Positions 2,278 to 60,963 of a stretch of DNA of 64,000 nucleotides are shown piece after piece. Source of the DNA: an uncultured Gemmatimonadaceae bacterium (GTDB lineage Bacteria; Gemmatimonadota; Gemmatimonadetes; Gemmatimonadales; Gemmatimonadaceae). The notes beneath the pieces were generated by a model, which was not told the origin of the DNA, made no database searches, and saw only the letters and a program-made list of their open reading frames with translations. The DNA lies in assembly GCA_963781585.1 (NCBI GenBank), contig CAWAGQ010000004.1, positions 352,001 to 416,000 of the forward strand, written 5' to 3'. The position numbers and the translations under genes are program-made. The first letter of the stretch is position 1. Each line of letters starts with the position of its first letter.

Positions 2278-4068
2278 GTGATCGACGGCCGCTTTCGCTT
2301 CGACAACTTCATCGTCGGCGCGTCCAATCGCCTGGCGGTGTCGGCGGCGCGCGCGGTGGCCGAAACGCCCGGCGTGGTCTACAACCCGCTGGTCATCTAC
2401 AGCGCGTCCGGCCTGGGAAAGACGCACCTGCTGGCCGCGCTTGGCTACGCCACGCGCGAACTGCACCCCGAGCGCGACGTGGAGTACCTGACGCTCGAAC
2501 GCTTCGTGGACGAACTGCATGCCGCGGTCGCCAGCGGACGCCCCGATGCCCAGTTGCGGCGCTACCAGCACGTCCAGACGCTGCTGCTGGACGACGTGCA
2601 GTTTCTCACCGGACGGGTCGAGACGCAGACGGAACTCCTCCGCATCTTCAACGCGGTTCAGGAGAATGGCGGACAGATCGTGATGACGAGCGATCGGCCG
2701 CCGGCGGAGATCGGCGACGTCGATGCGCGGCTCCTGAGCCGGATGTCGGGCGGCCTGATCGTCGACATCGGCGAACCGGAGTACGAGACCCGGGTCGCGA
2801 TTCTCCGTCACAAGTGCGCCGAGCGAGGGCTGACCTTTGTGCCCGGTGTACTCGAGCAGCTGGCGAGCGCGCCGGCCGGGAGCGTGCGCGAACTCCAGGG
2901 GGCCCTGAATCGGGTTGCGGCACAGCAGTCCATCAGCGACGCGCCGCTCGGGATTCAGGACGTGCGCGTTGCCCTGGCAGGACGGAGCGAAGAGGGACCG
3001 GACGATGAGTACCAGAGCTTCCTGAACGAGGTCGCGGCGACAGTATCGCTGACGGTCGATCCGTGGCGCATCCGGCTGGGAGAAATGGTGTCTCGCTGGA
3101 GCGGCGAAGGGTTTCAGACCACGATGCTGGAGCGTGCGATGGCGGCCAGCGAGGCCCCCGATATCGATGCGCTCGATGCCCGGTTCGCCGCGGCCGCTGC
3201 GCGACTACGGGCGCTCGAAGCCGAAGCGGCCCGTCTCGATCCGAAGCTCATCGAGCTGGCGGCCTTTCGCGATCCCGAACGGGTGGCCGACGCCGAGACG
3301 GTCGTGCTGCGCGCGCTGGCCGCCTACGATCCGCCCCCCGGCCCCGACCGGCGCTTCGGCATCGAACAGTTCGTCGTGGGGGAGCGCAATCGCCTCGCGC
3401 TGCGCGGCGCGGCGGAAGTGATCGCCGTGCCGGGGGCGCGGTACAATCCGCTCTACATCCACGGCGCCACGAGTTCCGGCAAGACACACCTCCTGCACGC
3501 CATCGGCAACGCGCTGGCGGCGCGCGACGGCGGCGGGTGGACGGTCGCCTGTGTCACGGCCCAGCAGTTCACCGATGGACTGATCGAAGCCATCCAGGAG
3601 GCCGAGCTCGAGCGCTGGCGCATGCGGTACCGGGCGGTCGACGCGCTGCTGATCGATGACGCCCAGGCGCTCAGCGGCAAGGAGCGGTCGCAGGACGAGC
3701 TCTTCCATCTCTTCAACGCCTTTCATGACAGCGGCAAGCAGATCGTGCTCGCCGCGGACGTGGCGCCGTCCCAGCTGGTGGAGCTTGCGGCCCGGCTGCG
3801 CTCCCGCTTCGAGGGGGGGCTGGTGGTCGAGCTGGGTCGCGTGTCGCGGGCCGAGCGGGTGGCGCGCTACACGCCCGTCCCTATCGGTGCGGAGGCGGCC
3901 GCCCCCACCATCGACGCCTGGTTCGAAGAGGCGGTCGAGTCACCGCCCGATGCACTGGCCAGCCAGCTCGAGTCGTTAGGCGGCGTCGACTTCTTCTTCC
4001 TCGATCCCGAGAAGTGCATCACCGAATGGCCGGGTGTGGACGGACGCATCATCGAGGAGCTTCGCTGA
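2278..4068 (+). CDS. DnaA/Hda-family protein with two tandem DnaA-like AAA+ modules and no DnaA domain IV
   Basis: Two copies of the DnaA domain III pattern: FDNFIVGASNRLA...YNPLVIYSASGLGKTHLL...LLLDDVQFL...RLLSRMSGGL and FVVGERNRLA...YNPLYIHGATSSGKTHLL...LLIDDAQAL...RLRSRFEGGL. Confidence 0.88.
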   Translation: MIDGRFRFDNFIVGASNRLAVSAARAVAETPGVVYNPLVIYSASGLGKTHLLAALGYATRELHPERDVEYLTLERFVDELHAAVASGRPDAQLRRYQHVQTLLLDDVQFLTGRVETQTELLRIFNAVQENGGQIVMTSDRPPAEIGDVDARLLSRMSGGLIVDIGEPEYETRVAILRHKCAERGLTFVPGVLEQLASAPAGSVRELQGALNRVAAQQSISDAPLGIQDVRVALAGRSEEGPDDEYQSFLNEVAATVSLTVDPWRIRLGEMVSRWSGEGFQTTMLERAMAASEAPDIDALDARFAAAAARLRALEAEAARLDPKLIELAAFRDPERVADAETVVLRALAAYDPPPGPDRRFGIEQFVVGERNRLALRGAAEVIAVPGARYNPLYIHGATSSGKTHLLHAIGNALAARDGGGWTVACVTAQQFTDGLIEAIQEAELERWRMRYRAVDALLIDDAQALSGKERSQDELFHLFNAFHDSGKQIVLAADVAPSQLVELAARLRSRFEGGLVVELGRVSRAERVARYTPVPIGAEAAAPTIDAWFEEAVESPPDALASQLESLGGVDFFFLDPEKCITEWPGVDGRIIEELR

Positions 4069-5684
4069 TGGCCATCCGCGGCAGTCTCCGGGAAGCGAGC
4101 CTCCCCGATGTCCTCCAGCTGCTCGCCATGGGGAAGAAGACCGGCTGCCTCTCGGTCACCCACCGTCAGAGCTTCGGGACGATCTTCTTCGACAGTGGAC
4201 GCATCTGCTACGCCTCGATCGTCAACCGGCGTGACCGGCTCGGCGATCTGCTCCTGAAGCACGGCCTGATCACCCGTCCGCAGCTCGACGCCGCCGTCGC
4301 CGAACAAGTCGACCGACCCGACCGGCGTCTCGGTGAGATCCTCATCGCCGACGGCCTCCTGCAACCCGAGCAGTTGCGGGAGTACATCACCCATCAGATC
4401 CAGGAAGCAGTCTACTTCCTGTTCACCTGGACGCAGGGGACGTTCAGCTTCGAGCCCGATGTGCGCCCCGACACCCGGGACCTCCTGGTGTCGATCGGCC
4501 CCGAGTCCCTGCTGCTCGAGGGAGCGAGACGGGTGGACGAATGGAGTCTGATCGAAAAGAAGATTACCAGCTTCGATCTCATCTTCGCCCTCGATCGCGA
4601 GCACCTGACCGAAAGCCACGTCGACCTGACGCCCGAACAGGAGATTCTCGTTCCGCTCCTCGACGGACAGCGCGATGTCAGCGCGCTCACGGAAGAAACC
4701 GGGATGGACGACTTCGAGGTGGGCAAGGCGCTGTTCGGACTCCTCTCTGCCGGTTTCCTGCATCGCGCGGGACGCAGCACCGGCCCCGAGACCGTTGCCG
4801 GCGAGTCCCGCATCCTCGAGCACCGCAACCTCGGAGTCGCGTTCTACAGGACAGGCATGTACGACGAGGCGCTCCGCGAGTTCCGGCGGGTCGTCGAGCT
4901 GCAGCCGGGGGACCAGGTCGCAGAATTCCACATCGGTCTGGTGGCGCTGCGCCAGGACCGCCTGGATGACGCGATCCGCACATTTCGCGCGATTGGCGCT
5001 CGTGAGGCGGCACCGGCCTCGGTGTTCGTCAATCTCGCCCACGCCCTCGAGCGGTCGGGTCGATACGACGAGGCCCGCGCCGCGCTGGACGACGCGGAGC
5101 GGTTGCAGCCGCAGGAGCCGATGAGCGAGCTCGCACACGGCGTGCTGTCGTTGCGCCGGGGCGATGTGGAGGGCGCAGATCGACACCTGCAGTGTGCCGC
5201 CGAACGGTGGGGCGGGAAGGCGCGACCGGCAGCATGGTTTCACTACGCCGGTCTGGTGGCGGCGCTGCGCGGCGAGCTCGATCGAGCCACGGAGGTTCTG
5301 GAGCACGGGGTGGTGGCGTATCCACACGTCGCCGCACTGTACAACAACCTGTCCGTTGCCCTGGAGCGTCGCGGGCGCTACGCGGAAGCGTTGGCGGCGG
5401 CAGAGCGGGGGAGCGTGGAAGATCCGGCGCTGCCGCAGCTCCACAAGAACCTCGGCGATCTGCAGTACCGCGCCGGGCACTACGACGAGGCGCTCGACGC
5501 CTATCAGCGTGCGGTCCGGTACGACCCGGAGCTGGGCGGCGACGTCCATCTGAAGATGGGGAACGTGCGGTATCGACGCGGCGAGCGCGACGATGCGATG
5601 CGCTGCTGGGAGCGTTCGCTCTCGCTTGCGCCGGACAATCCCATGGCGAGGAACAACCTCGAGACCGCGCGACGGCTGACGTGA
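4068..5684 (+). CDS. DUF4388 (PatA-N-like) + MshEN + TPR-repeat protein
   Basis: N-terminal MAIRGSLREASLPDVLQLLAMGKKTGCL...WTQGTFSF (DUF4388), two RLGxxLLxxGL motifs, and multiple C-terminal TPRs. TGATG coupling to the upstream gene. Confidence 0.85.
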   Translation: MAIRGSLREASLPDVLQLLAMGKKTGCLSVTHRQSFGTIFFDSGRICYASIVNRRDRLGDLLLKHGLITRPQLDAAVAEQVDRPDRRLGEILIADGLLQPEQLREYITHQIQEAVYFLFTWTQGTFSFEPDVRPDTRDLLVSIGPESLLLEGARRVDEWSLIEKKITSFDLIFALDREHLTESHVDLTPEQEILVPLLDGQRDVSALTEETGMDDFEVGKALFGLLSAGFLHRAGRSTGPETVAGESRILEHRNLGVAFYRTGMYDEALREFRRVVELQPGDQVAEFHIGLVALRQDRLDDAIRTFRAIGAREAAPASVFVNLAHALERSGRYDEARAALDDAERLQPQEPMSELAHGVLSLRRGDVEGADRHLQCAAERWGGKARPAAWFHYAGLVAALRGELDRATEVLEHGVVAYPHVAALYNNLSVALERRGRYAEALAAAERGSVEDPALPQLHKNLGDLQYRAGHYDEALDAYQRAVRYDPELGGDVHLKMGNVRYRRGERDDAMRCWERSLSLAPDNPMARNNLETARRLT

Positions 5685-6196: not shown

Positions 6197-7286
6197 ACGC
6201 CGCACGGTGCTGGTCGTCGACGACAGCGCGCTCGTCTGCCGCGTGGTCGCCGACCTGATCGAGGCCAGTGCCGACTTCCGCGTGGCCGGCATCGCCCGTG
6301 ACGGCTTGGACGCCATTCGCAAGCTGCACAGCCTCGAGCCCGACCTCGTCACGCTCGACGTGCAGATGCCGGATCTCGACGGCCTGCAGACACTCGGCTA
6401 CATCATGAGCGAGGCGCCGCGACCCGTGATCATGCTCAGCGCGCTGGATTCGCTGGGCGGTGCGGATCTGACCATCAGGGCGCTCGAGCTGGGTGCGGTG
6501 GATTTCGTGCGCAAGACCGGGCCTGACGACGCGCTCGATCCGAGAACGCTCCGCGATCGTCTGCTTCGGGCGCTCCGGGGGGCGCGAAACGTGAACCTCC
6601 GCGCCGCATCGGTGCTGGCCCGGCCGCTCGCCGCCCGCAAGTCCGCGCGCCCGGGTGAGAAGCCCGCCACTCATGTCGTGGCGATCGCCGCGTCCACCGG
6701 AGGGCCGCGGGCGCTCGCCGAAATACTGCCGGCGCTTCCCGGAGACCTCGGTGCGGCGGTTCTGGTGGTGCAGCACATGCCGGCCGGGTTCACTGAGAGC
6801 CTGGCGCGCCGCCTCGACCGTCTCGCATCACTTGCCGTGGGCGAGGCGGTAGACGGGGAGGTCCCGCTTGCCGGCCATGCCTACATCGCGCCGGGGGGCC
6901 GCCATCTGACGCTCAGTCGTGACGGTGGGGCCACGCGCCTGGCGGTCGGCGCCGGTGCCGCTGTTCGCGGAGCGCGACCGTCGGCCGACCTGCTGTTCGA
7001 CTCGGTCGCCGAACATCTCAGGGCGGCGGCGGTGGGTGTGGTACTCACCGGGATGGGGCACGACGGCGCCGCGGGCCTGAAGCGCATGCGTGGCGCGGGC
7101 GCCTACGCCCTCGTTCAGGATCGCGGGACCTCCACCGTATACGGCATGCCGATGACGGCGCTCGCACACGCCGGTGCAGATCGGGTGGTGCCGCTGTCGG
7201 AGATGGCGCCCGCGATCCTGGCCGCCCTGGAGGCGCGGGGAATGACGCGCCGCGATGTGACCACCGAAGATCCGATTCTGTCCTGA
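6186..7286 (+). CDS. cheB: Chemotaxis response regulator/methylesterase CheB
   Basis: Receiver domain (VVDDS, TLDVQMP, FVRK) plus esterase triad motifs ASTGG, VQHMP, LTGMGHDG. Confidence 0.95.
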   Translation: MSSERRTVLVVDDSALVCRVVADLIEASADFRVAGIARDGLDAIRKLHSLEPDLVTLDVQMPDLDGLQTLGYIMSEAPRPVIMLSALDSLGGADLTIRALELGAVDFVRKTGPDDALDPRTLRDRLLRALRGARNVNLRAASVLARPLAARKSARPGEKPATHVVAIAASTGGPRALAEILPALPGDLGAAVLVVQHMPAGFTESLARRLDRLASLAVGEAVDGEVPLAGHAYIAPGGRHLTLSRDGGATRLAVGAGAAVRGARPSADLLFDSVAEHLRAAAVGVVLTGMGHDGAAGLKRMRGAGAYALVQDRGTSTVYGMPMTALAHAGADRVVPLSEMAPAILAALEARGMTRRDVTTEDPILS

Positions 7287-7886: not shown

Positions 7887-8359
7887 CCACCATGACCGGC
7901 AGCTCGCGCATCATCACGTTCCGTCTCGGCGACGATCTGTTCGCGGCCGACATCTTCGCCGTGGAGCGGGTGCTGCGATACGACGCGCCCCGGGCAATCC
8001 CGAACGTACCCGACTGGATCCGCGGCGTGATCGAGTACCAGGGGCGCGTCGTGCCGGTCGTGGACCTCCGGCGTCGCTTCGGCCTTCCCGAGGCCGACGT
8101 TGGTCCGCAGGCCCGGATGCTGGTCCTCTCGTCAGGCGGGGAGTGGGTGGCGGTCATCGTCGACCTGGTTCTCGACGTGCGGCCACTCGAGGAGGCGGCA
8201 CTGTCGCCGCCGCCCGCGCTGTTCCGCGGGCTGGCCGGCGAATACCTGCGGGGTCTGACGCGTCGGGGAGAGTCGCTGGTGGTTGTGCTGGACGTGGACC
8301 GCCTGCTCTCCAGTCAGGACCGGCTGGTGCTGGCGCCCGCCCGGGGGGCGGATGCCTGA
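7883..8359 (+). CDS. cheW: CheW-like coupling protein
   Basis: IITFRLGDDLFAADI, IPNVPDWIRGVIEYQGRVVPVVDLRRRFG, VVVLDVDRLL. Confidence 0.92.
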   Translation: MTTMTGSSRIITFRLGDDLFAADIFAVERVLRYDAPRAIPNVPDWIRGVIEYQGRVVPVVDLRRRFGLPEADVGPQARMLVLSSGGEWVAVIVDLVLDVRPLEEAALSPPPALFRGLAGEYLRGLTRRGESLVVVLDVDRLLSSQDRLVLAPARGADA

Positions 8360-9233
8360 TCCGGCGCGAGCGTCCCTTCGTCTCCGGTTCGAGGGCATCG
8401 GGCAGGCCCTCGACGCACCCGGTGCATCCGGCCACAAGGCCGAGCTCAAGGCCGAGATCATCGCCCTCTTCAAGGCGGTGGATCGCGAGGTGGCCGACCT
8501 CGCGGTCCTGCGCGACGAAGTAAAGGGTCTGGTTACGCGGTGGAAGGCGCTGGACGGGGATGAGGCCGAAGCCAGTCGGGGCGCGGAACCCGCCCCGCCG
8601 CCGGCGGCGCCGACCGTGTCGGGACCCACCCGGGCCGATCACCTGAACGCGTCGAGCCACATCGAGAAGGGGTGGAGCCTCATTTCGCTGGGCGACTGCG
8701 CATCGGCCGAACAGGCGCTGCACAAGGCGCTGTCGCTGGTGCCTAACGACTTGCAGGCCGAGTCGTTGCTGGGATGGGCGCAGATGCTGCAGGGCAAGTA
8801 CGACGACGCGCTGCTCAACTTCCAGCAGGTCCTGTGTCAGGAGCCGGCCAATGCCCTGGCTCGAGTGAACGTGGGGTACATCTGCCTGAAGAAGGGCATC
8901 TTCGGCGAAGCAATCGAGCACCTGTCGCGCACCATCCGCCTCGACAACGATCGGAAAGCGACGCTCTACGCCCACTACTACCTGGGCCTGCTGTACCTGG
9001 AACGTGAGATGTTCGACGATGCCGAGAGCTTCCTGCGCAAGGCCATCTCGCTTGGACCCAACCTGGTGGAAGCGTACTACGAGCTCGGGCGCGTGCTCTG
9101 GTTCGCGGGCAGCGCCGAGGCCGCGTCGCAGGCGTGGCGCGACGGCGTGTCGGCGAACAAGTTCAGTCCATGGGGGAAGCGCTGCGCCGAGATGCTGCGG
9201 GAAGTCGAAGCCGGCGGCGTGCTCACGCGCTGA
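8352..9233 (+). CDS. Tetratricopeptide repeat protein
   Basis: N-terminal coiled segment, Pro/Ala linker, then about 5 TPR units (e.g. AHYYLGLLYLEREMFDDAESFLRKAISLGPNLVEAYYELG). Confidence 0.85.
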   Translation: MPDPARASLRLRFEGIGQALDAPGASGHKAELKAEIIALFKAVDREVADLAVLRDEVKGLVTRWKALDGDEAEASRGAEPAPPPAAPTVSGPTRADHLNASSHIEKGWSLISLGDCASAEQALHKALSLVPNDLQAESLLGWAQMLQGKYDDALLNFQQVLCQEPANALARVNVGYICLKKGIFGEAIEHLSRTIRLDNDRKATLYAHYYLGLLYLEREMFDDAESFLRKAISLGPNLVEAYYELGRVLWFAGSAEAASQAWRDGVSANKFSPWGKRCAEMLREVEAGGVLTR

Positions 9234-10192
9234 TCCTCGCCGGTGCGGTCGCCCTCGCGGCCGCGCCGCCCGGAGCCGCCCAGCTCCCGTTAGGCATGCA
9301 GCAGGTGACGGCCGGCCGGTTTACCGTCGCGGCCGAGCCGGGAGACATGCAGCTGGCGCGGGCGCTGCTCGGACGGGCCACCGCCAGGGATACGTTCCCG
9401 TGGCTGCCGCGCCCGCACGAGCCGGTCCTGATCATCGTCGCCCCCGACCGCCGCACCTTCCGGGCACTGGTCGGGCCGGCGGCTCCCGAATACGGCGCCG
9501 CCATCGCCATCCCGGCCGAGCGGCGCATCGTCATGCAGGGCCACAACGCGGCGTCGGATGCCGGTGATCCGCTCGAGGTGCTCCGTCACGAGCTCGCACA
9601 CCTGGCGCTCCACGAGCGGCTGGACAACATCCCGCCTCGATGGTTCGACGAGGGGTACGCGTCGGTGGCGGCCGGTGAGTGGGGTCGCGACGAGGTACTG
9701 GCCACGAATGTTGCGCTTGCCTTGCGCGGCATGCCCTCGCTCGATGCGCTCGACGCACAGTTCGCGGGAGGCGCCGGACAGGCGACCGCCGCCTATGCGC
9801 TGGCACACCGTGCGGTCGTGGAACTCGCGGCGCTCGATCCCGAGCGTGGCCTGTCGCTGTTCTTCGACTATTGGCGCCAATCGGGAGACTTCGACGCCGC
9901 CATTCGTCAGGCATTCGGCATTACCGAATCGGACTTCGTGCAACGCTGGCGCGACCACACGCGCCGTCGCTATGGCGGCCTGGCGCTGTTCGCGGATCTC
10001 ACGATCGGTGCGCTCGTGCTGCTCTTCGTCATCACACCGTTGTACCTCGTGCGGCGCGCCCGAGACCGCGCGCGTCTGGAACGCATGGCGGACACGGAAG
10101 CGCGGGTGGAGCAGCAGGCCCGCGATACTGCCATCGAGGAGCTTCTGCGGAGCGTTACCCCGCCGTCCAGCGACCGTCGCCCCGACACGTGA
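9170..10192 (+). CDS. Zinc metallopeptidase (peptidase MA/gluzincin-like), exported with C-terminal membrane anchor
   Basis: HELAH motif followed by PRWFDEG, a signal-like segment (LILAGAVALAAAP) and a C-terminal TM (LTIGALVLLFVITPLYLV). Start uncertain (9134, 9170 or later). Confidence 0.75.
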   Translation: MGEALRRDAAGSRSRRRAHALILAGAVALAAAPPGAAQLPLGMQQVTAGRFTVAAEPGDMQLARALLGRATARDTFPWLPRPHEPVLIIVAPDRRTFRALVGPAAPEYGAAIAIPAERRIVMQGHNAASDAGDPLEVLRHELAHLALHERLDNIPPRWFDEGYASVAAGEWGRDEVLATNVALALRGMPSLDALDAQFAGGAGQATAAYALAHRAVVELAALDPERGLSLFFDYWRQSGDFDAAIRQAFGITESDFVQRWRDHTRRRYGGLALFADLTIGALVLLFVITPLYLVRRARDRARLERMADTEARVEQQARDTAIEELLRSVTPPSSDRRPDT

Positions 10193-10227
10193 CGCCGCGG
10201 TGACGTAACAGCAAGCAAGGCTGGAGC

Positions 10228-10256: not shown

Positions 10257-10265
10257 TCGGCGCTT

Positions 10266-12633: not shown

Positions 12634-13572
12634 GTGACCCACTCTGATACCTACGCGAGCGCATTCCACACTCCGGTCCTCGTACACGAGGTCGTTGAGC
12701 TGCTCGGCAACGCTGATCATGTCCTGGACTGCACACTCGGCGGCGGCGGGCACGCGCTCGCGCTGCTCGAGCGGGGCGCCCGGGTAACCGGGCTCGATCG
12801 CGATCCCGAGGCGGTGCGCGCCGCGTCCGCACGGCTCGCGTCGTACGCCGGGACAGGACAGTTCCGCGCTGCGCAAGGCAGCTTTGGCGATCTGAACGCC
12901 ACGGCGATTGCCGATGATGAGCGATTTGCCGGCATCCTGCTCGACCTGGGCGTGTCGTCGCATCAGATGGATTCACCGGCGCGTGGTTTTACGTTCCGAA
13001 CGGACGCGCCGCTCGACATGCGGATGACTGTCGATACGCCGGACGACGCCGCTCGTCTCGTCAACGAGAGCAGCGAACGAGAACTGGCGGCGATCTTCAG
13101 AGACTATGGCGACGTGACGAAGGCCGGACGGCTGGCCCGAGAGATCGTCAGGCGTCGAGGGCGACGACCGTTTCGCATCAGCGACGATCTGGTGGACGCG
13201 ATACGGGCCGTGCTCGGTCCACGCAGCGGACCCGCCGAGTTCGCCCCCGTCTTCCAGGCGCTGCGAGTCGCGGTGAACGATGAGCTGGGCGCGCTCGAAC
13301 GCGCGCTGCCAGTGCTCCGCGACCGGCTTTCCGCGGGCGGCACCATGGCGGCGATCACGTATCACTCGGGCGAGGATCGCCTGGTGAAGCGGGCGTTTCG
13401 CGACTGGAGCGCGGCGTGTGTGTGCCCGCCACGGCAACCAGTCTGCACCTGCCGCGGCCGGCCGCTGGGGCGATCGCTGACGCGTCGTCCGATGCTCCCC
13501 AGCGACGCTGAGAGCGCCTCGAATCCGCGCGCGCGCAGCGCGCACCTGCGGGCATGGCAAAGCGCCGCGTAA
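12634..13572 (+). CDS. rsmH: 16S rRNA m4C1402 methyltransferase
   Basis: HTPVL, DCTLGGGGH, DLGVSSHQ, PLDMRM, FQALRVAVNDEL, YHSGEDR, NPRARSA. Confidence 0.96.
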   Translation: MTHSDTYASAFHTPVLVHEVVELLGNADHVLDCTLGGGGHALALLERGARVTGLDRDPEAVRAASARLASYAGTGQFRAAQGSFGDLNATAIADDERFAGILLDLGVSSHQMDSPARGFTFRTDAPLDMRMTVDTPDDAARLVNESSERELAAIFRDYGDVTKAGRLAREIVRRRGRRPFRISDDLVDAIRAVLGPRSGPAEFAPVFQALRVAVNDELGALERALPVLRDRLSAGGTMAAITYHSGEDRLVKRAFRDWSAACVCPPRQPVCTCRGRPLGRSLTRRPMLPSDAESASNPRARSAHLRAWQSAA

Positions 13573-13856
13573 AGCTGCGCGGGCGTACCGTGGTCGCGCT
13601 GGTGTTGGGCGCGTTTCTGGCGGTAGCCACCAGCATCGTGTGGCGGCGCTCGCTGGGCAGCGTGCAGGCGCGGCATCTGCACGATCTCCGGACCCAACTG
13701 GCCGATCTGCAGACGCAGCGCGCTCAGCTTCAGGCCGACGTCCATCGCGCGACGAGCCGACCCTATCTGGCGCCGGTGGTGGCGCGCCTCGGGCTGGTGG
13801 TGCCGAACGACAGTCAGGTCATTGTGCTGCCGATGCCGCGGCAACCGGAGCGTTAG
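13554..13856 (+). CDS. ftsL: Cell division protein FtsL-like
   Basis: Basic N-terminus, single TM and leucine-zipper coiled coil, located between rsmH and ftsI. Confidence 0.75.
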   Translation: MAKRRVKLRGRTVVALVLGAFLAVATSIVWRRSLGSVQARHLHDLRTQLADLQTQRAQLQADVHRATSRPYLAPVVARLGLVVPNDSQVIVLPMPRQPER

Positions 13857-13860
13857 GCGC

Positions 13861-44308: not shown

Positions 44309-45438
44309 TGCGCATCGGGATTCTCTCGTTAGGTTCTCTCGTGCTCGCGGTCGCGACCGTTCAGGGGCAGGGAGCGATCAGCACACAGGGGTTCGGCTAT
44401 CCGGCCGGCGGCGCGAGCACCAGAGCGGCCGCAGGCGGCGCCGCGTTCGCCGAATTCGACTTTGCGTCGCCGCGTAATCCCTCGAGCCTGCTGGCGTGGG
44501 GACGCGGTGGGCTGTACATCCAGTACGATCCGGAGCTGCGGTCGGTCGCGAGCGGAGGCAGTTCCGACAAGACCACCACCATCCGGTTTCCGATGATCGC
44601 TGCGGCCGCGCAGATCGGTCCCAGGACGGTCGTCTCGTTGTCGTCGTCCACGTTCCTGGACCGAACATGGGCCACGCGCGTGCGTGGCGGAGAGATACTG
44701 GGATCCGATTCGGTGGGCTTCTCCGAGTTCGTGCAATCGAACGGCGCCATCAACGACATCCGGTTGGCGGCATCAGTGTCTGTCTCGACCTGGTTCGCCG
44801 TTGGTCTTGGCCTCCACGCCTATGCCGGAGAGAATCGACTCCAGCTGCAGCGGACGTTCGACGACAGTCTCCGGTACGGCTCGATCGATCGCCTCCTCAC
44901 CCTGGGATACCAGGGCACCGGTGTCTCGCTCGGCGCTACCTGGAGACCGAGCCGGAACCTGGCGGTGGCGGGGTCGGCGCGCTCGGGAGGCACGTTTGAG
45001 ATGCGGCTGGCCGATTCCGTCATTGCGTCGGCCAAGGTGCCGAACCGGGTTGGATTCGGCCTGCGTTTCGACGGCCTGCCCGGCGCGAGTATCGCCGTCG
45101 GCGCGGAGCGAACCACCTGGTCCCGGATGTCGGCGCTGTCCTCGTCGTCGCTCGTGACCCGCGACACCTGGGAATACGACGTCGGGACGGAGCTCACCAG
45201 TCCGCACAGCGGCGCCGTCCCGGCGACGTTCTACCTCGGTTTTCGCTCGCGCCAGCTACCGTTCTCCTCCACAGGCGTCAACGTGTCGGAGCACATCTAC
45301 TCGGGGGGCGTGAGCCTCCCGTTGTCCGGCCCGCGAGCGGTCGCGGACCTTGCGCTGGAGCGCGCCACGCGTGGCACCGTGAGTGACGTCAGCGAACACG
45401 CGTGGATCGTGAGCGTGGCTCTCACCATCCGACCGTGA
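44308..45438 (+). CDS. Putative outer-membrane beta-barrel protein (FadL/OmpP1-like N-terminus)
   Basis: Signal peptide, STRAAAGG...RNP hatch-like N-terminus, amphipathic strands ending WIVSVALTIRP. Confidence 0.6.
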   Translation: MRIGILSLGSLVLAVATVQGQGAISTQGFGYPAGGASTRAAAGGAAFAEFDFASPRNPSSLLAWGRGGLYIQYDPELRSVASGGSSDKTTTIRFPMIAAAAQIGPRTVVSLSSSTFLDRTWATRVRGGEILGSDSVGFSEFVQSNGAINDIRLAASVSVSTWFAVGLGLHAYAGENRLQLQRTFDDSLRYGSIDRLLTLGYQGTGVSLGATWRPSRNLAVAGSARSGGTFEMRLADSVIASAKVPNRVGFGLRFDGLPGASIAVGAERTTWSRMSALSSSSLVTRDTWEYDVGTELTSPHSGAVPATFYLGFRSRQLPFSSTGVNVSEHIYSGGVSLPLSGPRAVADLALERATRGTVSDVSEHAWIVSVALTIRP

Positions 45439-49654: not shown

Positions 49655-51871
49655 GTGCCACTCGTCACACTGGCGTACCTTGCCGTCGCCGCCGGGCTCC
49701 TGATGGGGTTCGGCGGCGCGGTGCTGCTGGGGGCCGGGTGCGCCATCGCGCTCTTTGCCGCGGGCGTGCAGCGCCGTCAGGCGACGCCGTCGGTGTTGGG
49801 GGTGCTGGTGGTGGCCGCGGTAGCGCTGGCCCACTTCTCGGGGCGCGCGGACGAGCGATGTGCGCGTGCCATCGCGGCAAGCGGGGCGGCGCGCGTTCGC
49901 CTCGGTGAGGACGTGCGGCCGCGCCGCAACGCGCGGGGCGTGGCGCTGGGAGCGGGATGCCGCGTGCCGGTGCGGGTGGGTGTCGATTCAGGACACGCGG
50001 TCGCGGGTGCGTTGGTGGACGTGCACGGCGAGAGCCGACGCGATGGCGGCATGGTCACGTTCACCGGTGCCCGGATTGCCGTTCGCGCCCAGCCCGGGGT
50101 GCTGGCGAAATGGCGGGCGCGCACCGGACGGACCATCGACGAGATCTACGGAGCTCAGGCGCCACTGGCGCGGGCGCTCCTGATCGCCGACGAACACGAC
50201 ATCGCGCCTGAGGTACGTCGCCAGTTCGCCGACGCCGGGATTATCCACATGCTCTCGGTCTCGGGTCTGCACGTCGGGATTCTGGCGGAAGCGGTGGCCC
50301 TTGCGGCGCTGCTGCTGGGCGCGGGTGTCCGGCGGGCCGAGGTGGCGGCGGTGGTGGTCACCGCGTGCTTCGTGCTGTTCGTGGGGGCGCCGGCGCCCGC
50401 GGTGCGGGCCGGCGCGATGTATGCGGCCGTGGTCGCGGCCCGGCGGCTGCAGCGTCCCACCTCACCGTGGGCGCTGCTCGCGTTAGGCGCGGCGGTTCCG
50501 CTGCTCGATCCGAGGGCGGTGCGCGAAGTGGGGTACCAGCTCAGCAGCGTGGGCATGGCGGGACTGATCGCCAGTGGTGCGCTGTTCCGGCGCCTGTCCT
50601 TCCCCAAAGCACCCGCCTGGACGCTGCGCGCGATGCGCGAGATGCTCGCGACCGTCGTGGCCAGCGCGGTCACGGCGCCGATCGTCGCCTGGCACTTCGG
50701 ACGGGTGAGCCTGGCCGCGCCGATCACCAACCTGGCGGCGGCCCCGCTGTTCGGCCTCGCGCAGCCCGCGCTGTTCGTGTCGCTGCTCTGCTTCCCGGTG
50801 CGCCCGGTGGCGCGGTTCGTGGCCGGCGGCACGGGCGTGCTGCTGGCTGCCATCTCGCGCGTGGCCGCCTGGGGTGCGTCCGTCCCGGGAGCGGCGCTGG
50901 ACGTGATGCCAAGCGCCTTCACCGCGGCACTGATGGCGGTTGCGGCCGGCGCCCTGATCACGACCTGCGCAGCCCGGCGGTGGGCGAGACCGGCGCTTGC
51001 GGGCATTGGCGCAGTGGCTACGGCGCTATGGTGGCCCTTGCTGGCCCCGTCAGGGACGCGGCTCGAGGTGCACATGATCGACGTCGGACAGGGGGACGCC
51101 ATCGCGCTGCGAACACCCGCCGGGCGATGGATCGTGGTGGACGCGGGGGACGCATGGCGGAACGGCGACGCGGGCGCGCGGATTGTCGCCCCCTACCTCC
51201 GGCGGCGCGGCGGAGACGTGGCGGCGCTGGTGCTCACGCATCCGCACAGCGATCACATCGGCGGGGCGGCGAGTCTGCTGCGCCTGACGTCGGTAGCGGC
51301 AGTCTACGATGGCGGTGTGGTGTACCCGAGCGACGTCTATGACTCGCTGCTGACGCGCACCCGGGCCGCGCATGTCGCCTGGCGCCTTGCCCGGACCGGC
51401 GACAGCCTCACGGTCGACGGCGTGCGCCTGCGGATTCTGGGTCCGGATTCGATCACCGCCGCACGGGCTCGGGATCCCAACGAAGCCAGCGTGGTGGTCA
51501 TGGCCGAGTACCGAGGCGCCCGTGTGCTCCTCACCGGCGATGCCGAGCGTGCCGAGGAGTCCCGGATACTCGATCGCTTCGGCGACGAAATACACGCGGA
51601 CGTGCTGAAGGTGGGTCACCACGGCAGCATCACCAGCAGCACGGCACCGTTTCTCGATGCTGTTCACCCGCGCGTGGCGCTGGTGAGCGTCGGCGCCGAC
51701 AACAGCTACGGCCATCCCAGCGCGCAGGTGATGCACGATCTGCAACGGCGGCAGGTGGAACTGCTGCGCACGGACCAGGACGGGACCGTTGTGGTGAGCA
51801 CCGATGGGAAAACGCTCCGCATTCGCACCGACGAGGCGTCGTGGGAGTTGCGAATCCGATCGGTGCGGTAG
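49655..51871 (+). CDS. comEC: DNA internalization competence protein ComEC/Rec2
   Basis: HMLSVSGLH, multi-TM core, metallo-beta-lactamase domain (DVGQGD, THPHSDHIGG, TGD, KVGHHGS, YGHP). Confidence 0.93.
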   Translation: MPLVTLAYLAVAAGLLMGFGGAVLLGAGCAIALFAAGVQRRQATPSVLGVLVVAAVALAHFSGRADERCARAIAASGAARVRLGEDVRPRRNARGVALGAGCRVPVRVGVDSGHAVAGALVDVHGESRRDGGMVTFTGARIAVRAQPGVLAKWRARTGRTIDEIYGAQAPLARALLIADEHDIAPEVRRQFADAGIIHMLSVSGLHVGILAEAVALAALLLGAGVRRAEVAAVVVTACFVLFVGAPAPAVRAGAMYAAVVAARRLQRPTSPWALLALGAAVPLLDPRAVREVGYQLSSVGMAGLIASGALFRRLSFPKAPAWTLRAMREMLATVVASAVTAPIVAWHFGRVSLAAPITNLAAAPLFGLAQPALFVSLLCFPVRPVARFVAGGTGVLLAAISRVAAWGASVPGAALDVMPSAFTAALMAVAAGALITTCAARRWARPALAGIGAVATALWWPLLAPSGTRLEVHMIDVGQGDAIALRTPAGRWIVVDAGDAWRNGDAGARIVAPYLRRRGGDVAALVLTHPHSDHIGGAASLLRLTSVAAVYDGGVVYPSDVYDSLLTRTRAAHVAWRLARTGDSLTVDGVRLRILGPDSITAARARDPNEASVVVMAEYRGARVLLTGDAERAEESRILDRFGDEIHADVLKVGHHGSITSSTAPFLDAVHPRVALVSVGADNSYGHPSAQVMHDLQRRQVELLRTDQDGTVVVSTDGKTLRIRTDEASWELRIRSVR

Positions 51872-53214: not shown

Positions 53215-54831
53215 ATGACCGACGACACAGACGCGCGTGCCACGCCGTCGGGGATCCCGGTCGAGAGAGTCTACGGTCCGGACGACCTGGCCCCCGACTA
53301 TCGCCAATCGTTAGGCGATCCGGGACGCTTCCCGTTCACCCGCGGCATCCAGGCCACCATGTACCGCGGCCGGCTCTGGACCATGCGCCAGTACGCGGGC
53401 TTCGGAACTGCCGCCGAGACCAACGCCCGGTTCCGGCACCTCCTCGACGCCGGGCAGACCGGCCTGTCGGTGGCCTTCGATCTGCCGACGCAGATGGGAC
53501 TCGACTCCGACGCTCCGCTGTCGCGTGGCGAAGTCGGGCGGGTGGGGGTGGCGATCGATTCGGTCGAGGACATGCACGTCCTCCTGGCCGATCTCCCACT
53601 CGAAGCGGTGACCACCTCCATGACCATCAACGCCACGGCGGCCACGCTGCTGGCGATGTACATCGTGGTCGCCGAAGAGCGCGGCATCGACCGTGCCCGC
53701 CTCGGCGGCACCGTGCAGAACGACATCCTCAAGGAGTACATCGCTCGCGGAACCTACATCTATCCCCCCGGCCCCAGCCTGCGACTCACCACCGAGGTGT
53801 TCCGCTTCTGCGCCGCCGAGGTGCCGAGCTGGAATCCGATCTCCATTTCCGGCTATCACATCCGCGAGGCGGGCGCGACCGCCGTGCAGGAGCTCGCGTT
53901 CACCTTCGCCAACATGCTCGAGTACGCGCGTGGCGCGGTGGAGGCGGGCCTGCCGGTCGACACGTTTGCACCGCGGTTTTCGTTCTTCTTCGCGTCACAT
54001 AACGACTTGTTCGAGGAAGTAGCGAAGTTCCGCGCCGCCCGACGGCTGTACGCCCGCCTGATGCGCGAGCAATTCGGAGCGTCGGATGCCACCTGCCGCC
54101 TGCGCTTCCATACTCAGACCGGCGGCGTAACGCTGACCGCGCAGCAGCCCTTGAACAACGTGGTTCGAGTCACCGTCCAGGCGCTGGCGGCGACGCTCGG
54201 AGGCACCCAATCGCTCCATACCAACGGCTACGACGAAGCGCTGGCCCTGCCTGGCGAGCAGGCGGCGACCCTCGCGTTGCGAACGCAGCAGCTCATCGCG
54301 CATGAGTCCGGGATCGCGAATACGGTCGATCCGATGGCCGGCAGCTTTTACGTCGAACATCTGACCGACGAACTGGAGCGCCGCGCCTGCGAACTGCTGT
54401 CGCGGATCGACGCGCTCGGCGGGGCCGCGCGCGCCATCGCGGCCGGTTTCGTTCAGGAGGAGATCGCACGGAGCGCCTGGGAGGCGCAGCAGCGCGTGGA
54501 GTCGGGAGCCGCCACCGTGGTAGGCGTGAACCGCTACCTGGACGACCAGCCGGCTCCCATTCTGCCCCAGCCCGATTTCTCGCAGCTCGAGCGCGAGCAG
54601 ATCGAACGCGTGCGCGCGCTCCGGGATCGGCGCGACGCGGCAGGCGTTCGATCGGCGCTGTCCGCGCTGCGCGGCATCGCCCGGTCCTATCGCGATGACT
54701 CGTCTTCCGCGGTTCTGTCGAGGCCTCCGGTCGTTCCTGCCATCCTCGGGGCCGTGCGGGCGCGGGCGACGGTTGGCGAAATCTCGCAGGCGCTGGCCGA
54801 GGAGTGGGGTGCCCACGACCACGCGGGCTAG
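53215..54831 (+). CDS. Methylmalonyl-CoA mutase, substrate-binding large subunit (split type)
   Basis: [15 protein letters not shown] (Tyr), [12 protein letters not shown] (Arg), SLHTNGYDE. No DxHxxG cobalamin domain. Confidence 0.9.
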
Positions 54832-54989: not shown

Positions 54990-55343
54990 TTGCCTACCTA
55001 CGAGTATCGGTGCCCCGAGGGGCATGAGTTCGAGCACTTCTACCGCACCATGGCGGGCGCGGAAGCCGAACTGCCATGTCCGGTGTGCGGGAAGACGGCC
55101 CAGCGCAAGGTATCCGGCGGCGCCGGGCTGGTCTTCAAGGGCTCCGGGTTCTACATCACGGACTATGGCAAGGACGGCAAGAAGGATCTGCGGCGGGGCG
55201 GGACTGGTCGCTCGTCAGGCGGCGCGGACGGTGGAGGCTCCACCGGAAGCGAGAAGTCCTCGGCGGGGAGCGGCGACAGCAACTCCTCCAGCCCGGGAAG
55301 CGAGAAGGAGAAGAAGAACGAAGCGAAGAAACCTGACGAATGA
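54990..55343 (+). CDS. FmdB-family zinc-ribbon protein
   Basis: PTYEYRCPEGHEFE...CPVCG...FKGSGFYITDY with an S/G/K-rich tail. TTG start. Confidence 0.88.
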   Translation: MPTYEYRCPEGHEFEHFYRTMAGAEAELPCPVCGKTAQRKVSGGAGLVFKGSGFYITDYGKDGKKDLRRGGTGRSSGGADGGGSTGSEKSSAGSGDSNSSSPGSEKEKKNEAKKPDE

Positions 55344-56983: not shown

Positions 56984-57065
56984 CGTCGCCAGGTTCCGCC
57001 GGTGACGCTCGGAGAGATTCCCGCGCCGCGCTCGCGGTTAGGCGCCGTCCCCGTTTCCCTGTCGC

Positions 57066-57986: not shown

Positions 57987-59014
57987 GCACGCCGCTCGAC
58001 TACCGCACGGCGGGGGTGGACATCGCGCTGGCCGACGACGCGAAACGCCGGATGCGCGCGCTGGTGGAGTCGACGCGTACCGCCGACACCCTCGGTGCGT
58101 TCGGTGCCTTCGGCGGGCTCCACCGCGCCCCGGGCGGCCGGCACCCGGTGCTGGTCGCCAGCGCCGACGGCGTGGGAACGAAGATCAGGGTCGCGATCGA
58201 CGCCGGACGCCACGACAGCGTCGGACACGATCTCGTGAACCACTGCGTCAACGACATCCTCGCCCAGGGCGCCACCCCGCTCTTCTTTCTGGACTACATC
58301 GCGTTCGGGGCGCTCGATCCGGCCGTCGCCGAATCCGTGGTGGCGGGCGTGGCCGCTGGATGCCGCGAGAACGGGTGCGCGCTGCTGGGCGGCGAGACCG
58401 CCGAGATGCCGGGCCTCTACACGCCTCCCGACTACGATCTGGCGGGTTTCATGGTCGGGGCGGTGGAGGAGGAGGCGCTGCTCGGAGCGGACCGGGTGCG
58501 GGCCGGCGACGCGGTGATCGCTCTGGAGAGCCGCGGTCTGCATACCAACGGGTACTCACTGGCGCGGCGCATTCTGGCGGACCGGCTTCGGCTCGGTGCC
58601 GATGACCCTTTCCCGGGCGAGGACGGAGCCACGGTGGCCGATGTGCTGTTGCGCGTGCACCGATCGTACCTGGGCGTGCTCCGGCCGTTTCTGCCCGAGC
58701 TGCACGCGCTGGCGCACATCACCGGGGGCGGCATCCCCGGAAATCTCGGCCGCGTTCTGCCGGCCGCGCTGGACGCGGTGGTGCACCTGGCCTCGTGGCC
58801 GGTGCCTAACGTTTTCCGGGTGCTGGCCGGGGCAGGCGAGGTGAAGGCGGAGGAGATGTACCGTGCGTTCAACATGGGGGCCGGCATGCTGGCGGTCGCG
58901 GCGCCGGCGGTGGGCCTGCGACTCATGGCCGCGGCCACCGCCGCCGGCACCCGCGCCTGGCAGGCCGGTGAAATCACAGCCGGATCCGGCCGCGTCGTGC
59001 TGCGCGGGGAGTAG
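57983..59014 (+). CDS. purM: Phosphoribosylformylglycinamidine cyclo-ligase
   Basis: DGVGTK, CVND, FFLDY, GGETAEMPG, GLHTNGYSL, HITGGG, FNMG. Confidence 0.96.
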   Translation: MSTPLDYRTAGVDIALADDAKRRMRALVESTRTADTLGAFGAFGGLHRAPGGRHPVLVASADGVGTKIRVAIDAGRHDSVGHDLVNHCVNDILAQGATPLFFLDYIAFGALDPAVAESVVAGVAAGCRENGCALLGGETAEMPGLYTPPDYDLAGFMVGAVEEEALLGADRVRAGDAVIALESRGLHTNGYSLARRILADRLRLGADDPFPGEDGATVADVLLRVHRSYLGVLRPFLPELHALAHITGGGIPGNLGRVLPAALDAVVHLASWPVPNVFRVLAGAGEVKAEEMYRAFNMGAGMLAVAAPAVGLRLMAAATAAGTRAWQAGEITAGSGRVVLRGE

Positions 59015-59021
59015 AGTCCAC

Positions 59022-59249
59022 ATGCGTGGCCCTCCCGATGCGGCGTTAGGCGGCAACCTGGCAGCGTCAGCGGCCGCCGCGCGCGTCCCGCGGGCATTTG
59101 CCGACCCGGCCCTCAACCTGACGCAGGTGCGGGTCGCCCCCGGGGTCGGACGCTCCTTGGGCGAGGTCCGGACGCTCAACTCGTTTGGTCCGGACCGCGC
59201 CGACGACGCCGTGGTGTTCGCCGCACTCGGGGCGCGTGCGCATTGGTAG
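59022..59249 (+). other. Possible 75-aa ORF or gene remnant between purM and ribD
   Basis: ATG 59022 with upstream GGGAG. The stop overlaps the ribD start, and the ORF ends VFAALGARAHW. Confidence 0.4.
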
Positions 59250-60352
59250 ACGCGCGAGCACCGGACGAGCAGGGCGCCGACGCCGACGCGGCATTCATGC
59301 GTCGCGCGCTCGAGCTCGCGCGGGCGGGTTGGGGGCAGACCTCCCCCAATCCGATGGTCGGCGCGGTCGTGGTACGCGATGGCGCGATTGTCGGGGAAGG
59401 CGCCCATCGGCAGTTCGGGGGCCCCCACGCCGAGGTCGAGGCGCTGAGCGCGGCCGGAAGCAGGGCGCGCGGGGCCACGCTGTACGTCACCCTCGAGCCC
59501 TGCGTGCACCAGGGCAAGACGCCGCCCTGCGTGACGGCAATCGTGGCCGCCGGCATCCGGCGCGTGGTCGTCGCCATGCGGGATCGCAACCCCGAGGCGG
59601 CCGGCGGACTGGAGCGGCTCCGCACGGCCGGGCTGTCGGTCGACGCCGGTCCCGGCGCGGAGGCCGCGCTCGAGCTGAACGCGGCGTACTTCCATTCGTA
59701 TGCAGCCCAACGTCCGTGGACGACCCTCAAGCTCGCCGTGTCGCTCGACGGAGCCATTGCCGACTACACCCGGGAACCCGGATGGATGACCGGAGAGGCG
59801 GCGCGTCAGGCGGTGCACCGCCTGCGGGCGGGCCACGACGTCATCGCGGTGGGAATGGGCACCGTACTCACCGATGATCCGCAACTCACCGTGCGTGACG
59901 CGCCGCTGCCGAGGGTCCCGCCGCTTCGCGCGGTGTTCTCGCGCACCGGCCGCCTGCCGTTGACCTCGCGGCTGGCGCAATCGGTGCACGAGGCTCCGGT
60001 CCTCGTGTTCGCCCAGTCGATCGATCCGGCGTACGAGCAGCTGCTCCGGCAGCTGGGTGTGGAGGTGGTGCTCGTGCCGTTGCTCGACGACGCGATGCGG
60101 CTGCTCGTCTCGCGGGGCCACCGCGCACTCCTCGTGGAAGGAGGCGCGCGGCTGGGTGCATCACTGATGGAGGCGAAGCTCGTTGACCGGCTGGTTGTTT
60201 TTCAGGCGCCGCTCATCCTCGGGGCGGGCGCGGTCAACGCCTTCGCCGCGATTCCATCCCGCCGAGTGGGCGAAGCCCCCCGACTGCGGATCGTGACCCG
60301 CGAACCGCTGGGGGACGATCTGATGACGGTCTTCGCACTGGATCGGTCCTGA
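59243..60352 (+). CDS. ribD: Riboflavin biosynthesis deaminase/reductase
   Basis: PNPMVG, HAE, TLEPC...TPPC, SLDG, DDPQL, VEGG. Confidence 0.96.
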   Translation: MVDARAPDEQGADADAAFMRRALELARAGWGQTSPNPMVGAVVVRDGAIVGEGAHRQFGGPHAEVEALSAAGSRARGATLYVTLEPCVHQGKTPPCVTAIVAAGIRRVVVAMRDRNPEAAGGLERLRTAGLSVDAGPGAEAALELNAAYFHSYAAQRPWTTLKLAVSLDGAIADYTREPGWMTGEAARQAVHRLRAGHDVIAVGMGTVLTDDPQLTVRDAPLPRVPPLRAVFSRTGRLPLTSRLAQSVHEAPVLVFAQSIDPAYEQLLRQLGVEVVLVPLLDDAMRLLVSRGHRALLVEGGARLGASLMEAKLVDRLVVFQAPLILGAGAVNAFAAIPSRRVGEAPRLRIVTREPLGDDLMTVFALDRS

Positions 60353-60963
60353 TGTTCACCGGAATCGTCGACGACGTGGGCAGCATCGAGCGCGCGGAGT
60401 TGGGCAAGGCGGGGCGCGAATTCCGGGTGCGGTGTCGCTACCAGGACCTGCAGCCGGGAGAGAGTATCGCCCTCAACGGGGCGTGCCTCACGGTGCGTGA
60501 GGCAGGCCCCGGGTGGTTCACGGTGGCGGCGGTGGACACCACGCTGGCTCGCACCACGATGGGTGGCTGGGACGTCGGCACGCGCGTCAATCTGGAGCGG
60601 GCCACCCGGGCGGGTGACCGGATGGGAGGCCACCTGGTTCTGGGACACGTTGACGGAGTGGGGGTGATCCGCCGGGTGGCCCGGGAGGGGACGGCGCTCC
60701 TGATCGATATCGGCGTGGAGGCCGACATCGCGGCGTTGCTTGTGCCGCACGGCTCCGTCACCGTGGATGGGGTCAGTCTCACCGTCAATGCCCTGCCCGC
60801 GCCCCGCGTCCTGCAGGTGGCGATCGTGGACTACACGGAGCGGAATACTACGTTAGGCGCCCGGGCTGCGGGCGATCGGGTCCATGTCGAGGGAGACGTG
60901 ATCGGCAAGTATGTCCGGCAGCTGATGGCCCCCTACGGTCGGATCTCGGGCGGATCCGATTGA
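60352..60963 (+). CDS. ribE: Riboflavin synthase (alpha chain)
   Basis: MFTGIV N-terminus, NGACLT, VNLER, GGHLVLGHVD, DGVSLT. Confidence 0.96.
   Translation: MFTGIVDDVGSIERAELGKAGREFRVRCRYQDLQPGESIALNGACLTVREAGPGWFTVAAVDTTLARTTMGGWDVGTRVNLERATRAGDRMGGHLVLGHVDGVGVIRRVAREGTALLIDIGVEADIAALLVPHGSVTVDGVSLTVNALPAPRVLQVAIVDYTERNTTLGARAAGDRVHVEGDVIGKYVRQLMAPYGRISGGSD

Follow-up and report, generated by a model that had tools for sequence, protein, structure and literature searches.

Few lineage-specific hyperabundant DNA words are known to us, and to our knowledge only the DNA uptake sequences (DUS) of the Neisseriaceae, the uptake signal sequences (USS) of the Pasteurellaceae and the HIP1 word of cyanobacteria reach, inside genes, an enrichment such as the one described here. 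DUS and USS are non-palindromic words of 8–10 bp with a density of about 1 per kb; the dedicated uptake receptor in Neisseria is a minor pilin, and a study of the Neisseriaceae is said to have found uptake-sequence dialects among lineages. Passages of two published analyses state that mismatched uptake sequences are over-represented in a graded way (Bakkali, PMC1939737) and that one orientation of known uptake sequences is commoner in reading frames (Van Passel, PMC2346458). HIP1 (GCGATCGC) is described, in the part of PMC5861425 that deals with it, as 15–300-fold over-represented, conserved between genomes and periodic, with a proposed role in nucleoid structure; excerpts of another paper tie the HIP1 palindrome to orphan methyltransferases (PMC4390886), and a term search of that paper returned no mention of Gemmatimonadetes or of non-palindromic words. 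Here, we describe the octamer CGTTAGGC (the T-form) and its counterpart CGTCAGGC (the C-form), combined as CGTYAGGC, in a window of 64,000 nucleotides from an uncultured Gemmatimonadaceae bacterium (assembly GCA_963781585.1, contig CAWAGQ010000004.1, positions 352,001 to 416,000). The word is lineage-specific and hyperabundant, belongs to a phylum new to such words, and is undescribed in the literature that we found: among the titles, abstracts and excerpts returned, no paper joined Gemmatimon- with 'DNA uptake sequence' or described the word or an uptake sequence in the phylum, and CGTTAGGC entered as text gave primers or unrelated topics among the matches listed.

Abundance and consensus of the word

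The DNA covered comprises the 64-kb window and the dcw neighbourhoods of four relatives (L001, L002, L003 and L005). In the window, 58 genes were called by a codon-usage model of our own and named with NCBIfam; gene calls in the relatives' loci come from the same model. There are 18 exact copies of the T-form, 15 on the + strand and 3 on the - strand, each at the position given in an original prediction made from the letters of the window (table 1). The word is non-palindromic, its reverse complement being the different octamer GCCTAACG. Dinucleotide-preserving shuffles (100) served as a composition null and returned a mean of 0.85 copies and a maximum of 3. For a codon null, synonymous codons were shuffled within each gene, which keeps both protein sequence and codon usage; the mean was 1.5 and the maximum 5, none of the 1000 shuffles reached 18, and one copy, the ftsL stop, falls in a gene end that this null leaves unshuffled. 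In the window, the excess thus holds up under the codon-shuffled control that had been called for, and none of the other 65,536 possible octamers departs from this null as strongly as the T-form.

The C-form, which the original prediction had overlooked, occurs 19 times (11 on the + strand, 8 on the - strand) against 8.0 expected, and no codon shuffle of 1000 reaches 19. For the combined word CGTYAGGC, 37 sites compare with 9.5 expected, again with none of 1000 shuffles reaching the observed count. These 37 core sites have a mean spacing of 1.58 kb, and the relatives carry 0.4–1.4 sites per kb.

The cleanest control is the count in carriers versus non-carriers, because it compares the same genes at similar G+C. 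Relatives were found by a search with the MraY protein, which returned 80 loci; the best 41 were metagenome-assembled genomes (MAGs) of Gemmatimonadota, with a top identity of 82%. The carriers (the window and the four relatives) amount to 125 kb, and the non-carrier pool consists of 35 other Gemmatimonadales dcw loci with 512 kb, from which L009 (GC 0.59) and L028 (GC 0.56), with 0 and 1 T-form copies, were excluded for low G+C. The T-form occurs 38 times in the carriers and twice in the same dcw genes of the non-carriers, a 78-fold rate ratio. The C-form is raised in all five carriers, with 42 copies against 36, and its excess is concentrated where a T precedes it: TCGTCAGGC, the C-form with a 5′ T, has 23 copies in carriers and 5 in non-carriers (17.5-fold), while VCGTCAGGC, the C-form lacking this T, has 19 and 31 (2.5-fold). 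Enrichment is therefore graded from the T-form through TCGTCAGGC to VCGTCAGGC. On the 3′ side, a purine stands at +1 in 64 of 80 sites and C at +2 in 42 of 80. Given the 5′ T excess in the C-form and the purine at +1, the consensus of the signal is about 5′-(T)CGTYAGGC(R)-3′. A few one-mismatch forms are raised (TGTTAGGC, CGTTAGGT, CGTTATGC and CGACAGGC); the majority are not.

Strand, reading frame and codon usage

By frame, the 18 T-form copies divide into 14 sense xCG-TTA-GGC sites encoding (A/P/S/T)-Leu-Gly, one ftsL stop (CGT-TAG) and three antisense CCT-AAC sites (Pro-Asn); the stop and the antisense copies are as originally predicted. For each strand and frame, peptide contexts able to encode the word were compared with the contexts that do (table 2). 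Summed over frames, occupancy of sense contexts is 25/149 in the window and 28/148 in the relatives, and that of antisense contexts is 9/66 and 11/66. The raw 15:3 strand bias thus arises because Leu-Gly contexts are far commoner than Pro-Asn contexts, an explanation that the original prediction had offered. In L005, where all genes lie on the + strand and GC skew is positive, GTTAGG cores number 8 on the + and 10 on the - strand, and the word is encoded with TTA, CTA and AGG. No co-orientation with replication, as expected of Chi or KOPS, was seen beyond codability in the window and four relatives; replichore position was inferred from GC skew only.

The word is imposed through synonymous choice in conserved genes, including the rare codons TTA, CTA, AGG and CCT. 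Of about 20,500 codons in the window, 18 are in-frame TTA, compared with 1162 uses of CTG. Fourteen of the 18 lie in the exact word and three in one-mismatch variants (CGTTAGGT twice, TGTTAGGC once, all where predicted and recovered through the list of TTA codons). The remaining one, CAC-TTA-CGG at 10634, is codon seven-in of a gene call with an uncertain start, so the earlier statement that every in-frame TTA sits in the motif holds for all but this codon. A further predicted variant, GGTTAGGC, is present and intergenic. The exact copy at 9288 does not lie outside genes: it is a sense Pro-Leu-Gly site in the gene at 9134-10192 (+), which replaces an initial gene call at 9290-10408 (-) and shares 67% protein identity with its orthologue in L001.

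The word is a DNA-level signal and is orientation-blind. The T- and C-forms use both strands and all stop-free frames in the window and the relatives, which excludes a signal at the codon or mRNA level and makes a polar Chi or KOPS reading less likely; selection at the DNA rather than the translational level, as first proposed, is borne out.

Table 1. Positions of the word and its variants in the window, and of heptamer arrays in other Gemmatimonadales loci (own coordinates of each locus).
Feature	Positions	Strand	Context
CGTTAGGC	3974..3981	+	sense TCG-TTA-GGC (S-L-G), double DnaA-like AAA+ gene 2278-4068
CGTTAGGC	8741..8748	-	antisense CCT-AAC (P-N) in + gene 8352-9233
CGTTAGGC	9288..9295	+	sense CCG-TTA-GGC (P-L-G), gene 9134-10192; word also at this site in L001
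CGTTAGGC	13851..13858	+	ftsL stop codon CGT-TAG, 5 nt before ftsI start
CGTTAGGC	16348..16355	+	sense T-L-G, murE; CTC in L001 and L003 orthologues
CGTTAGGC	17517..17524	+	sense P-L-G, murF codon 26; common to L001
CGTTAGGC	17724..17731	+	sense A-L-G, murF codon 95; common to L002 and L003
CGTTAGGC	19651..19658	+	sense A-L-G, mraY; CGTTAGGT in L005, CTT or CTC in others
CGTTAGGC	22139..22146	+	sense P-L-G, ftsW
CGTTAGGC	22756..22763	+	sense T-L-G, murG
CGTTAGGC	24939..24946	+	sense T-L-G, murC
CGTTAGGC	28119..28126	+	sense T-L-G, ftsZ
CGTTAGGC	38669..38676	-	antisense P-N, gene 38556-39113
CGTTAGGC	50481..50488	+	sense A-L-G, comEC
CGTTAGGC	53309..53316	+	sense S-L-G, methylmalonyl-CoA mutase gene
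CGTTAGGC	58804..58811	-	antisense P-N, purM
CGTTAGGC	59044..59051	+	sense A-L-G, small open reading frame 59022-59249
CGTTAGGC	60851..60858	+	sense T-L-G, ribE
One-mismatch CGTTAGGT	30459..30466	+	TCG-TTA-GGT
One-mismatch CGTTAGGT	44327..44334	+	TCG-TTA-GGT
One-mismatch TGTTAGGC	49002..49009	+	TTG-TTA-GGC, miaB
One-mismatch GGTTAGGC	57036..57043	+	intergenic, argS / pfkB-family kinase gene
C-form CGTCAGGC	6521..6528	-	
C-form CGTCAGGC	8130..8137	+	
C-form CGTCAGGC	9905..9912	+	
C-form CGTCAGGC	13146..13153	+	rsmH
C-form CGTCAGGC	15159..15166	+	ftsI
C-form CGTCAGGC	16631..16638	-	murE
C-form CGTCAGGC	21505..21512	+	ftsW
C-form CGTCAGGC	21782..21789	-	ftsW codon 150 (CGC-CTG-ACG); L005 T-form CGC-CTA-ACG at same codons
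C-form CGTCAGGC	23908..23915	+	murC
C-form CGTCAGGC	28859..28866	-	M23 peptidase gene
C-form CGTCAGGC	32722..32729	-	start of recG
C-form CGTCAGGC	33265..33272	+	recG
C-form CGTCAGGC	33334..33341	-	recG
C-form CGTCAGGC	35283..35290	-	- strand gene 34881-35444
C-form CGTCAGGC	42647..42654	+	outside gene calls
C-form CGTCAGGC	49775..49782	+	comEC
C-form CGTCAGGC	51282..51289	-	comEC
C-form CGTCAGGC	55213..55220	+	gene 54990-55343
C-form CGTCAGGC	59804..59811	+	ribD
Heptamer arrays, L027	8537-8631, 13662-13764		
Heptamer array, L025	12193-12304		
Heptamer array, L020	13609-13720		
Heptamer array, L015	10073-10168		
Heptamer array, L029	8526-8627		

Table 2. Occupancy of codable contexts (contexts carrying the word/contexts able to encode it).
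Frame and peptide	Window	Four relatives	Non-carriers
xCG-TTA-GGC (L-G)	14/63	10/61	2/606
CGT-CAG-GCN (R-Q-A)	4/9	9/13	14/96
xCG-TCA-GGC (S-G)	3/34	4/25	2/227
GTC-AGG (V-R)	4/43	4/49	2/352
Antisense CCT-GAC (P-D)	3/32	2/19	3/218
Antisense CCT-AAC (P-N)	3/7	3/11	0/69
Antisense CTA-ACG (L-T)	0/27	3/36	0/251
Antisense CTG-ACG (L-T)	3/27	3/36	12/251

Distribution among relatives

In a tree of MraY proteins, the five carriers form one clade (SH-aLRT 99), and the sister lineages L004 and L008 have no T-form. The word is thus clade-specific, with a single origin on the tree, and the lineage specificity originally suggested is confirmed as one clade of five genomes from uncultured soil Gemmatimonadaceae. 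Exact T-form copies number 2 in 21 kb of L001, 2 in 6.5 kb of L002, 5 in 21 kb of L003 and 11 in 12 kb of L005, the densest genome, and density varies between carrier lineages from 0.09 to 0.91 per kb. None of the 80 MraY loci belongs to a cultured member of the clade.

Turnover and spacing of sites

At orthologous sites the amino acids are kept, and the word in one species is matched by CTC, CTG, CTT or TTG in another. Few sites are shared: murF codon 26 (with L001), murF codon 95 (with L002 and L003), the gene at 9134 (with L001) and ftsZ codon 202 (L003–L005). Where a codable site is shared, presence of the word in one species shows no association with its presence in another, either pooled (table 84, 28, 34, 15; odds ratio 1.3, p = 0.56) or for the Leu-Gly class alone (odds ratio 1.25, p = 0.73), in genomes whose protein identity of 63–71% leaves little power against weak site conservation. 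T- and C-form interchange at one site, ftsW codon 150, which reads CTG-ACG in the window and CTA-ACG in L005. That C-to-T deamination of the C-form gave rise to the T-form was considered and rejected, because T-form sites encode Leu in all species, the orthologues having CTN or TTG there and not Ser. That density is kept while sites turn over points to drive or to selection on density, acting across the genome, and speaks against site-specific regulation. Occupancy is higher at sites that could encode the word in the window and also in a relative (for example, of 12 such Leu-Gly sites shared with L001, 7 have the word in the window), which fits accumulation at long-lived conserved tripeptides.

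Along the window, successive 8-kb bins hold 2, 7, 10, 3, 5, 1, 5 and 4 sites. No regular spacing was seen among the 37 sites in 64 kb (coefficient of variation 0.92 versus 0.96 for uniform placement, P = 0.56), and no gap is outsized (largest gap P = 0.41). Terminator-type inverted pairs were considered and discarded: the closest pairs on opposite strands are separated by 240 and 547 bp, and no hairpin context was seen at 9288.

Genomic context and other repeated words

The window has a G+C content of 68% and a positive GC skew in every 4-kb bin, and all but three genes in the final calls lie on the + strand. The dcw cluster occupies 12.6–28.5 kb in the order rsmH-ftsL-ftsI-murE-murF-mraY-murD-ftsW-murG-murC-ftsQ-ftsA-ftsZ. 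There is no mraZ before rsmH at its head, where a gap of 210 bp (12412-12622) separates rsmH from a TPR gene; this gene begins at 10616, just downstream of a tRNA-Val(TAC) at 10532-10605. Also present are a che cluster, recG, asnS, a comFB-like gene with comEC, argS, purM and a rib operon; comEC and recG contain three copies of the word each. The small ComFB-like gene, which falls below the NCBIfam cut-off, lies immediately upstream of comEC, and the pair spans 49347-51871. The gene at 2278-4068 (+) encodes a 596-aa protein with two DnaA-like AAA+ modules, TIGR00362 having two separate matches in it. The gene directly follows MglB-like and small-GTPase genes and precedes a gene for a TPR/c-di-GMP-binding-domain protein and cheD-cheB-cheW-cheW, a context unusual for a DnaA-family ATPase.

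A second octamer, GCTGGTGG, which is the Chi word of E. coli, occurs 37 times on the + strand (e.g. 3774, 16445, 21417 and 57953) and twice on the - strand (13627 and 36832). Its 39 copies are about twice the 18.7 expected under the codon null, no shuffle of 1000 reaches 39, and its density is 0.61 per kb in the window versus 0.14–0.25 in the relatives and 0.28 in other Gemmatimonadales. In the source genome, GCTGGTGG may serve as a polar word of the Chi or KOPS kind.

Several words in other lineages were considered as possible dialects and set aside. ATTGCGGA and AATGCGGA (L015, L020, L025, L027 and L029) proved not to be dispersed and to stem instead from local arrays of tandem heptamers that form inverted pairs; the flanks of GAACGGCA (L020, L015 and L023) suggest a conserved protein motif as its source; and CATAGGCG (L041) is not repeated in the near relative L014. 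The heptamer arrays, (ATTGCGG)n or (AATGCGG)n, are intergenic, form inverted pairs and occupy similar places in the dcw neighbourhoods of several Gemmatimonadales (table 1); they look like a conserved hairpin-forming repeat element. In L004, GATGACTA is dispersed at 3269, 4852, 10343, 10425 and 15943 (3 on the + and 2 on the - strand), or 5 copies in 21 kb, compared with 9 in the remaining 650 kb from Gemmatimonadales; it may represent a further lineage-specific word or have turned up by chance in a post hoc scan. One locus, L033 (JBLMWC010000113.1), is labelled 'Bacillota bacterium', has a G+C of 0.70 and encodes an MraY that nests inside Gemmatimonadales, and its label or bin assignment looks wrong.

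Function of the word

Among the readings weighed here, a self tag of the DNA-uptake-sequence type fits the anatomy of the word best, and we advance it tentatively. Like DUS and USS, the word is non-palindromic, occurs about once per kb on both strands, is mostly genic and stands in frames that proteins tolerate; it is likewise common to the species of one clade, accompanied by graded near-cognates and commoner in one orientation within reading frames. Three features of the DUS and USS type are seen together here, namely hyper-abundance (in 64 kb and four dcw loci), use of both orientations without polarity, and restriction to a clade. The raw 15:3 bias is no counter-argument, because known uptake sequences show an orientation excess in reading frames in the text of PMC2346458 that concerns them. 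Unlike DUS and USS, to which it is unrelated in sequence, the word belongs to Gemmatimonadota and not to Proteobacteria; it also has one degenerate position (Y), for which a 5′ T compensates in the C-form, and its enrichment is lower, at tens-fold. The presence of comEC had been offered as a hint of uptake. The gene is indeed full-length (its product scores 247.6 against a curated NCBIfam cut-off of 190) and has the ComFB-like gene as its neighbour; the hint is weak because comEC is widespread.

If the word is an uptake tag, it would be read as duplex DNA by a protein indifferent to the direction of replication or transcription. A surface receptor of the competence machinery may prefer fragments that carry the word; ComEC, encoded in the window, would import the tagged fragments, and homologous recombination would install them. 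Word-bearing alleles could then spread by molecular drive, chiefly at conserved codable tripeptides such as (A/P/S/T)-Leu-Gly. In its full form the proposal goes further and is to be held with somewhat greater caution: this may be the first uptake-signal sequence outside Proteobacteria, in a naturally competent clade that would import (T)CGTYAGGC-tagged DNA via a receptor unrelated to ComP, with spread of the tag forcing TTA, CTA and AGG into essential cell-division genes.

Several points weigh against an uptake tag. The closest relative, L001, is poor in the T-form. No sister-lineage dialects were found in the Gemmatimonadales dcw loci searched, unlike in the Neisseriaceae. No receptor candidate was identified within the window, whose NCBIfam-named genes include no pilin, ComEA or DprA. 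Many non-competent bacteria also have comEC, and at the level of titles and abstracts no competence is reported in Gemmatimonadota. Leu-Gly occupancy by the T-form is higher in the dcw cluster than elsewhere (8/18 versus 5/46, p = 0.005, for a region chosen post hoc), an excess that simple uniform drive does not predict. Finally, the same anatomy would be expected from any orientation-blind DNA-binding function or from biased repair.

One such function is structural. An abundant chromosomal protein might bind (T)CGTYAGGC in either orientation, its density being selected for organisation, compaction or segregation of the chromosome, with no role in uptake. As with HIP1, the octamer is hyperabundant within and between genes at about 1 per kb, and its enrichment lies within the 15–300-fold range; its independence of orientation and mildly higher density in the dcw cluster also suit a nucleoid word. 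However, HIP1 is palindromic, conserved and periodic (10–90 kb), whereas this word is asymmetric, its spacing is irregular within 64 kb and its sites turn over between species, albeit between genomes just 63–71% identical in protein. We know of no nucleoid protein with an exact asymmetric site of 8–9 bp at such density. HIP1 fits less well than uptake sequences, and a structural word is unlikely. More doubtful is a by-product of biased repair, in which the ancestor of the clade gained, in a single event, a very-short-patch-like or other sequence-specific repair or gene conversion activity that corrects mismatches in favour of the word, with nothing else reading it. The single origin, the differences in density between lineages and the turnover without site conservation agree with this, and two Leu-Gly words that consist of common codons have a somewhat lower density in carriers (CGCTGGGC, 0.09–0.33 per kb versus 0.24 in non-carriers; CGCTCGGC, 0.15–0.52 versus 0.51). 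Yet most T-form sites require two synonymous changes if CTG or CTC is the starting codon, depletion of the one-step precursor CGTTGGGC is only mild (6 in 125 kb versus 41 in 512 kb), and the T-form cannot be a deaminated C-form, as its orthologues encode Leu and not Ser. The effect of Vsr in E. coli is modest, and a 78-fold enrichment that brings TTA, CTA and AGG into essential genes is far larger. A marker of self for defence or repair, at which an orphan enzyme might methylate or nick the DNA to tell the strands apart, or which might guard the cell's own DNA from a nuclease without polarity, is a shade less probable again. The word is asymmetric, clade-specific, dense and independent of orientation, with methylatable adenines on both strands, but the NCBIfam-named genes of the window include no methyltransferase or nuclease. 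Targets of restriction-modification are usually avoided rather than enriched, and a contiguous asymmetric site of 8–9 bp is long for the known classes of methyltransferase.

The readings that depend on direction, or on RNA, fare worse. A polar signal read on one strand by RecBCD, AddAB or FtsK and co-oriented with replication, as Chi and KOPS/SRS are, would also be an over-represented octamer in core genes whose raw counts lean to the G-rich strand. All 4-kb bins have a G-rich + strand, which is therefore probably the leading one, and the 3.5 kb spacing resembles that of Chi in E. coli. Chi, however, is built from common codons and this word needs rare ones; the raw bias vanishes once codability is taken into account, in the window and in the relatives; L005, with all genes on the + strand, has 8 cores on the + and 10 on the - strand; and GCTGGTGG, strongly polar here (37:2), could fill the role. 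The Chi-like or polar chromosome-architecture role first entertained is accordingly a poor fit and very improbable. Least of all do we expect a translational or RNA-level signal, such as a TTA pause of the bldA kind or a site for mRNA binding, or a nucleoid-occlusion site specific to the dcw cluster, although nearly all TTA codons lie in the word and copies are dense in that cluster. TTA codons of the bldA type act in any context and in regulated, non-core genes, whereas here TTA is confined, or nearly so, to one 8-mer in essential dcw genes, and the word is also found antisense, as a stop, in V-R and L-T frames and as a C-form that lacks TTA. Noc and SlmA sites are palindromes of 14–16 bp that number tens per genome; this non-palindromic 8–9-mer is far denser, at about one site per 1.6 kb, and its 37 sites extend across all 64 kb rather than the dcw cluster only, so the occlusion-type site that had been suggested fits poorly.

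Should the word prove to be an uptake tag, sequence-biased natural transformation would exist in a major, barely cultivated soil phylum, tagging donor DNA should help in genetic manipulation of its members, and an independent case would be available for weighing molecular drive against selection as the origin of such words. If it is not an uptake signal, it is a clean, clade-dated case in which a constraint at the DNA level prevails over codon usage in essential genes, and bears on models of codon usage, on the detection of gene transfer and on the binning of Gemmatimonadaceae MAGs.

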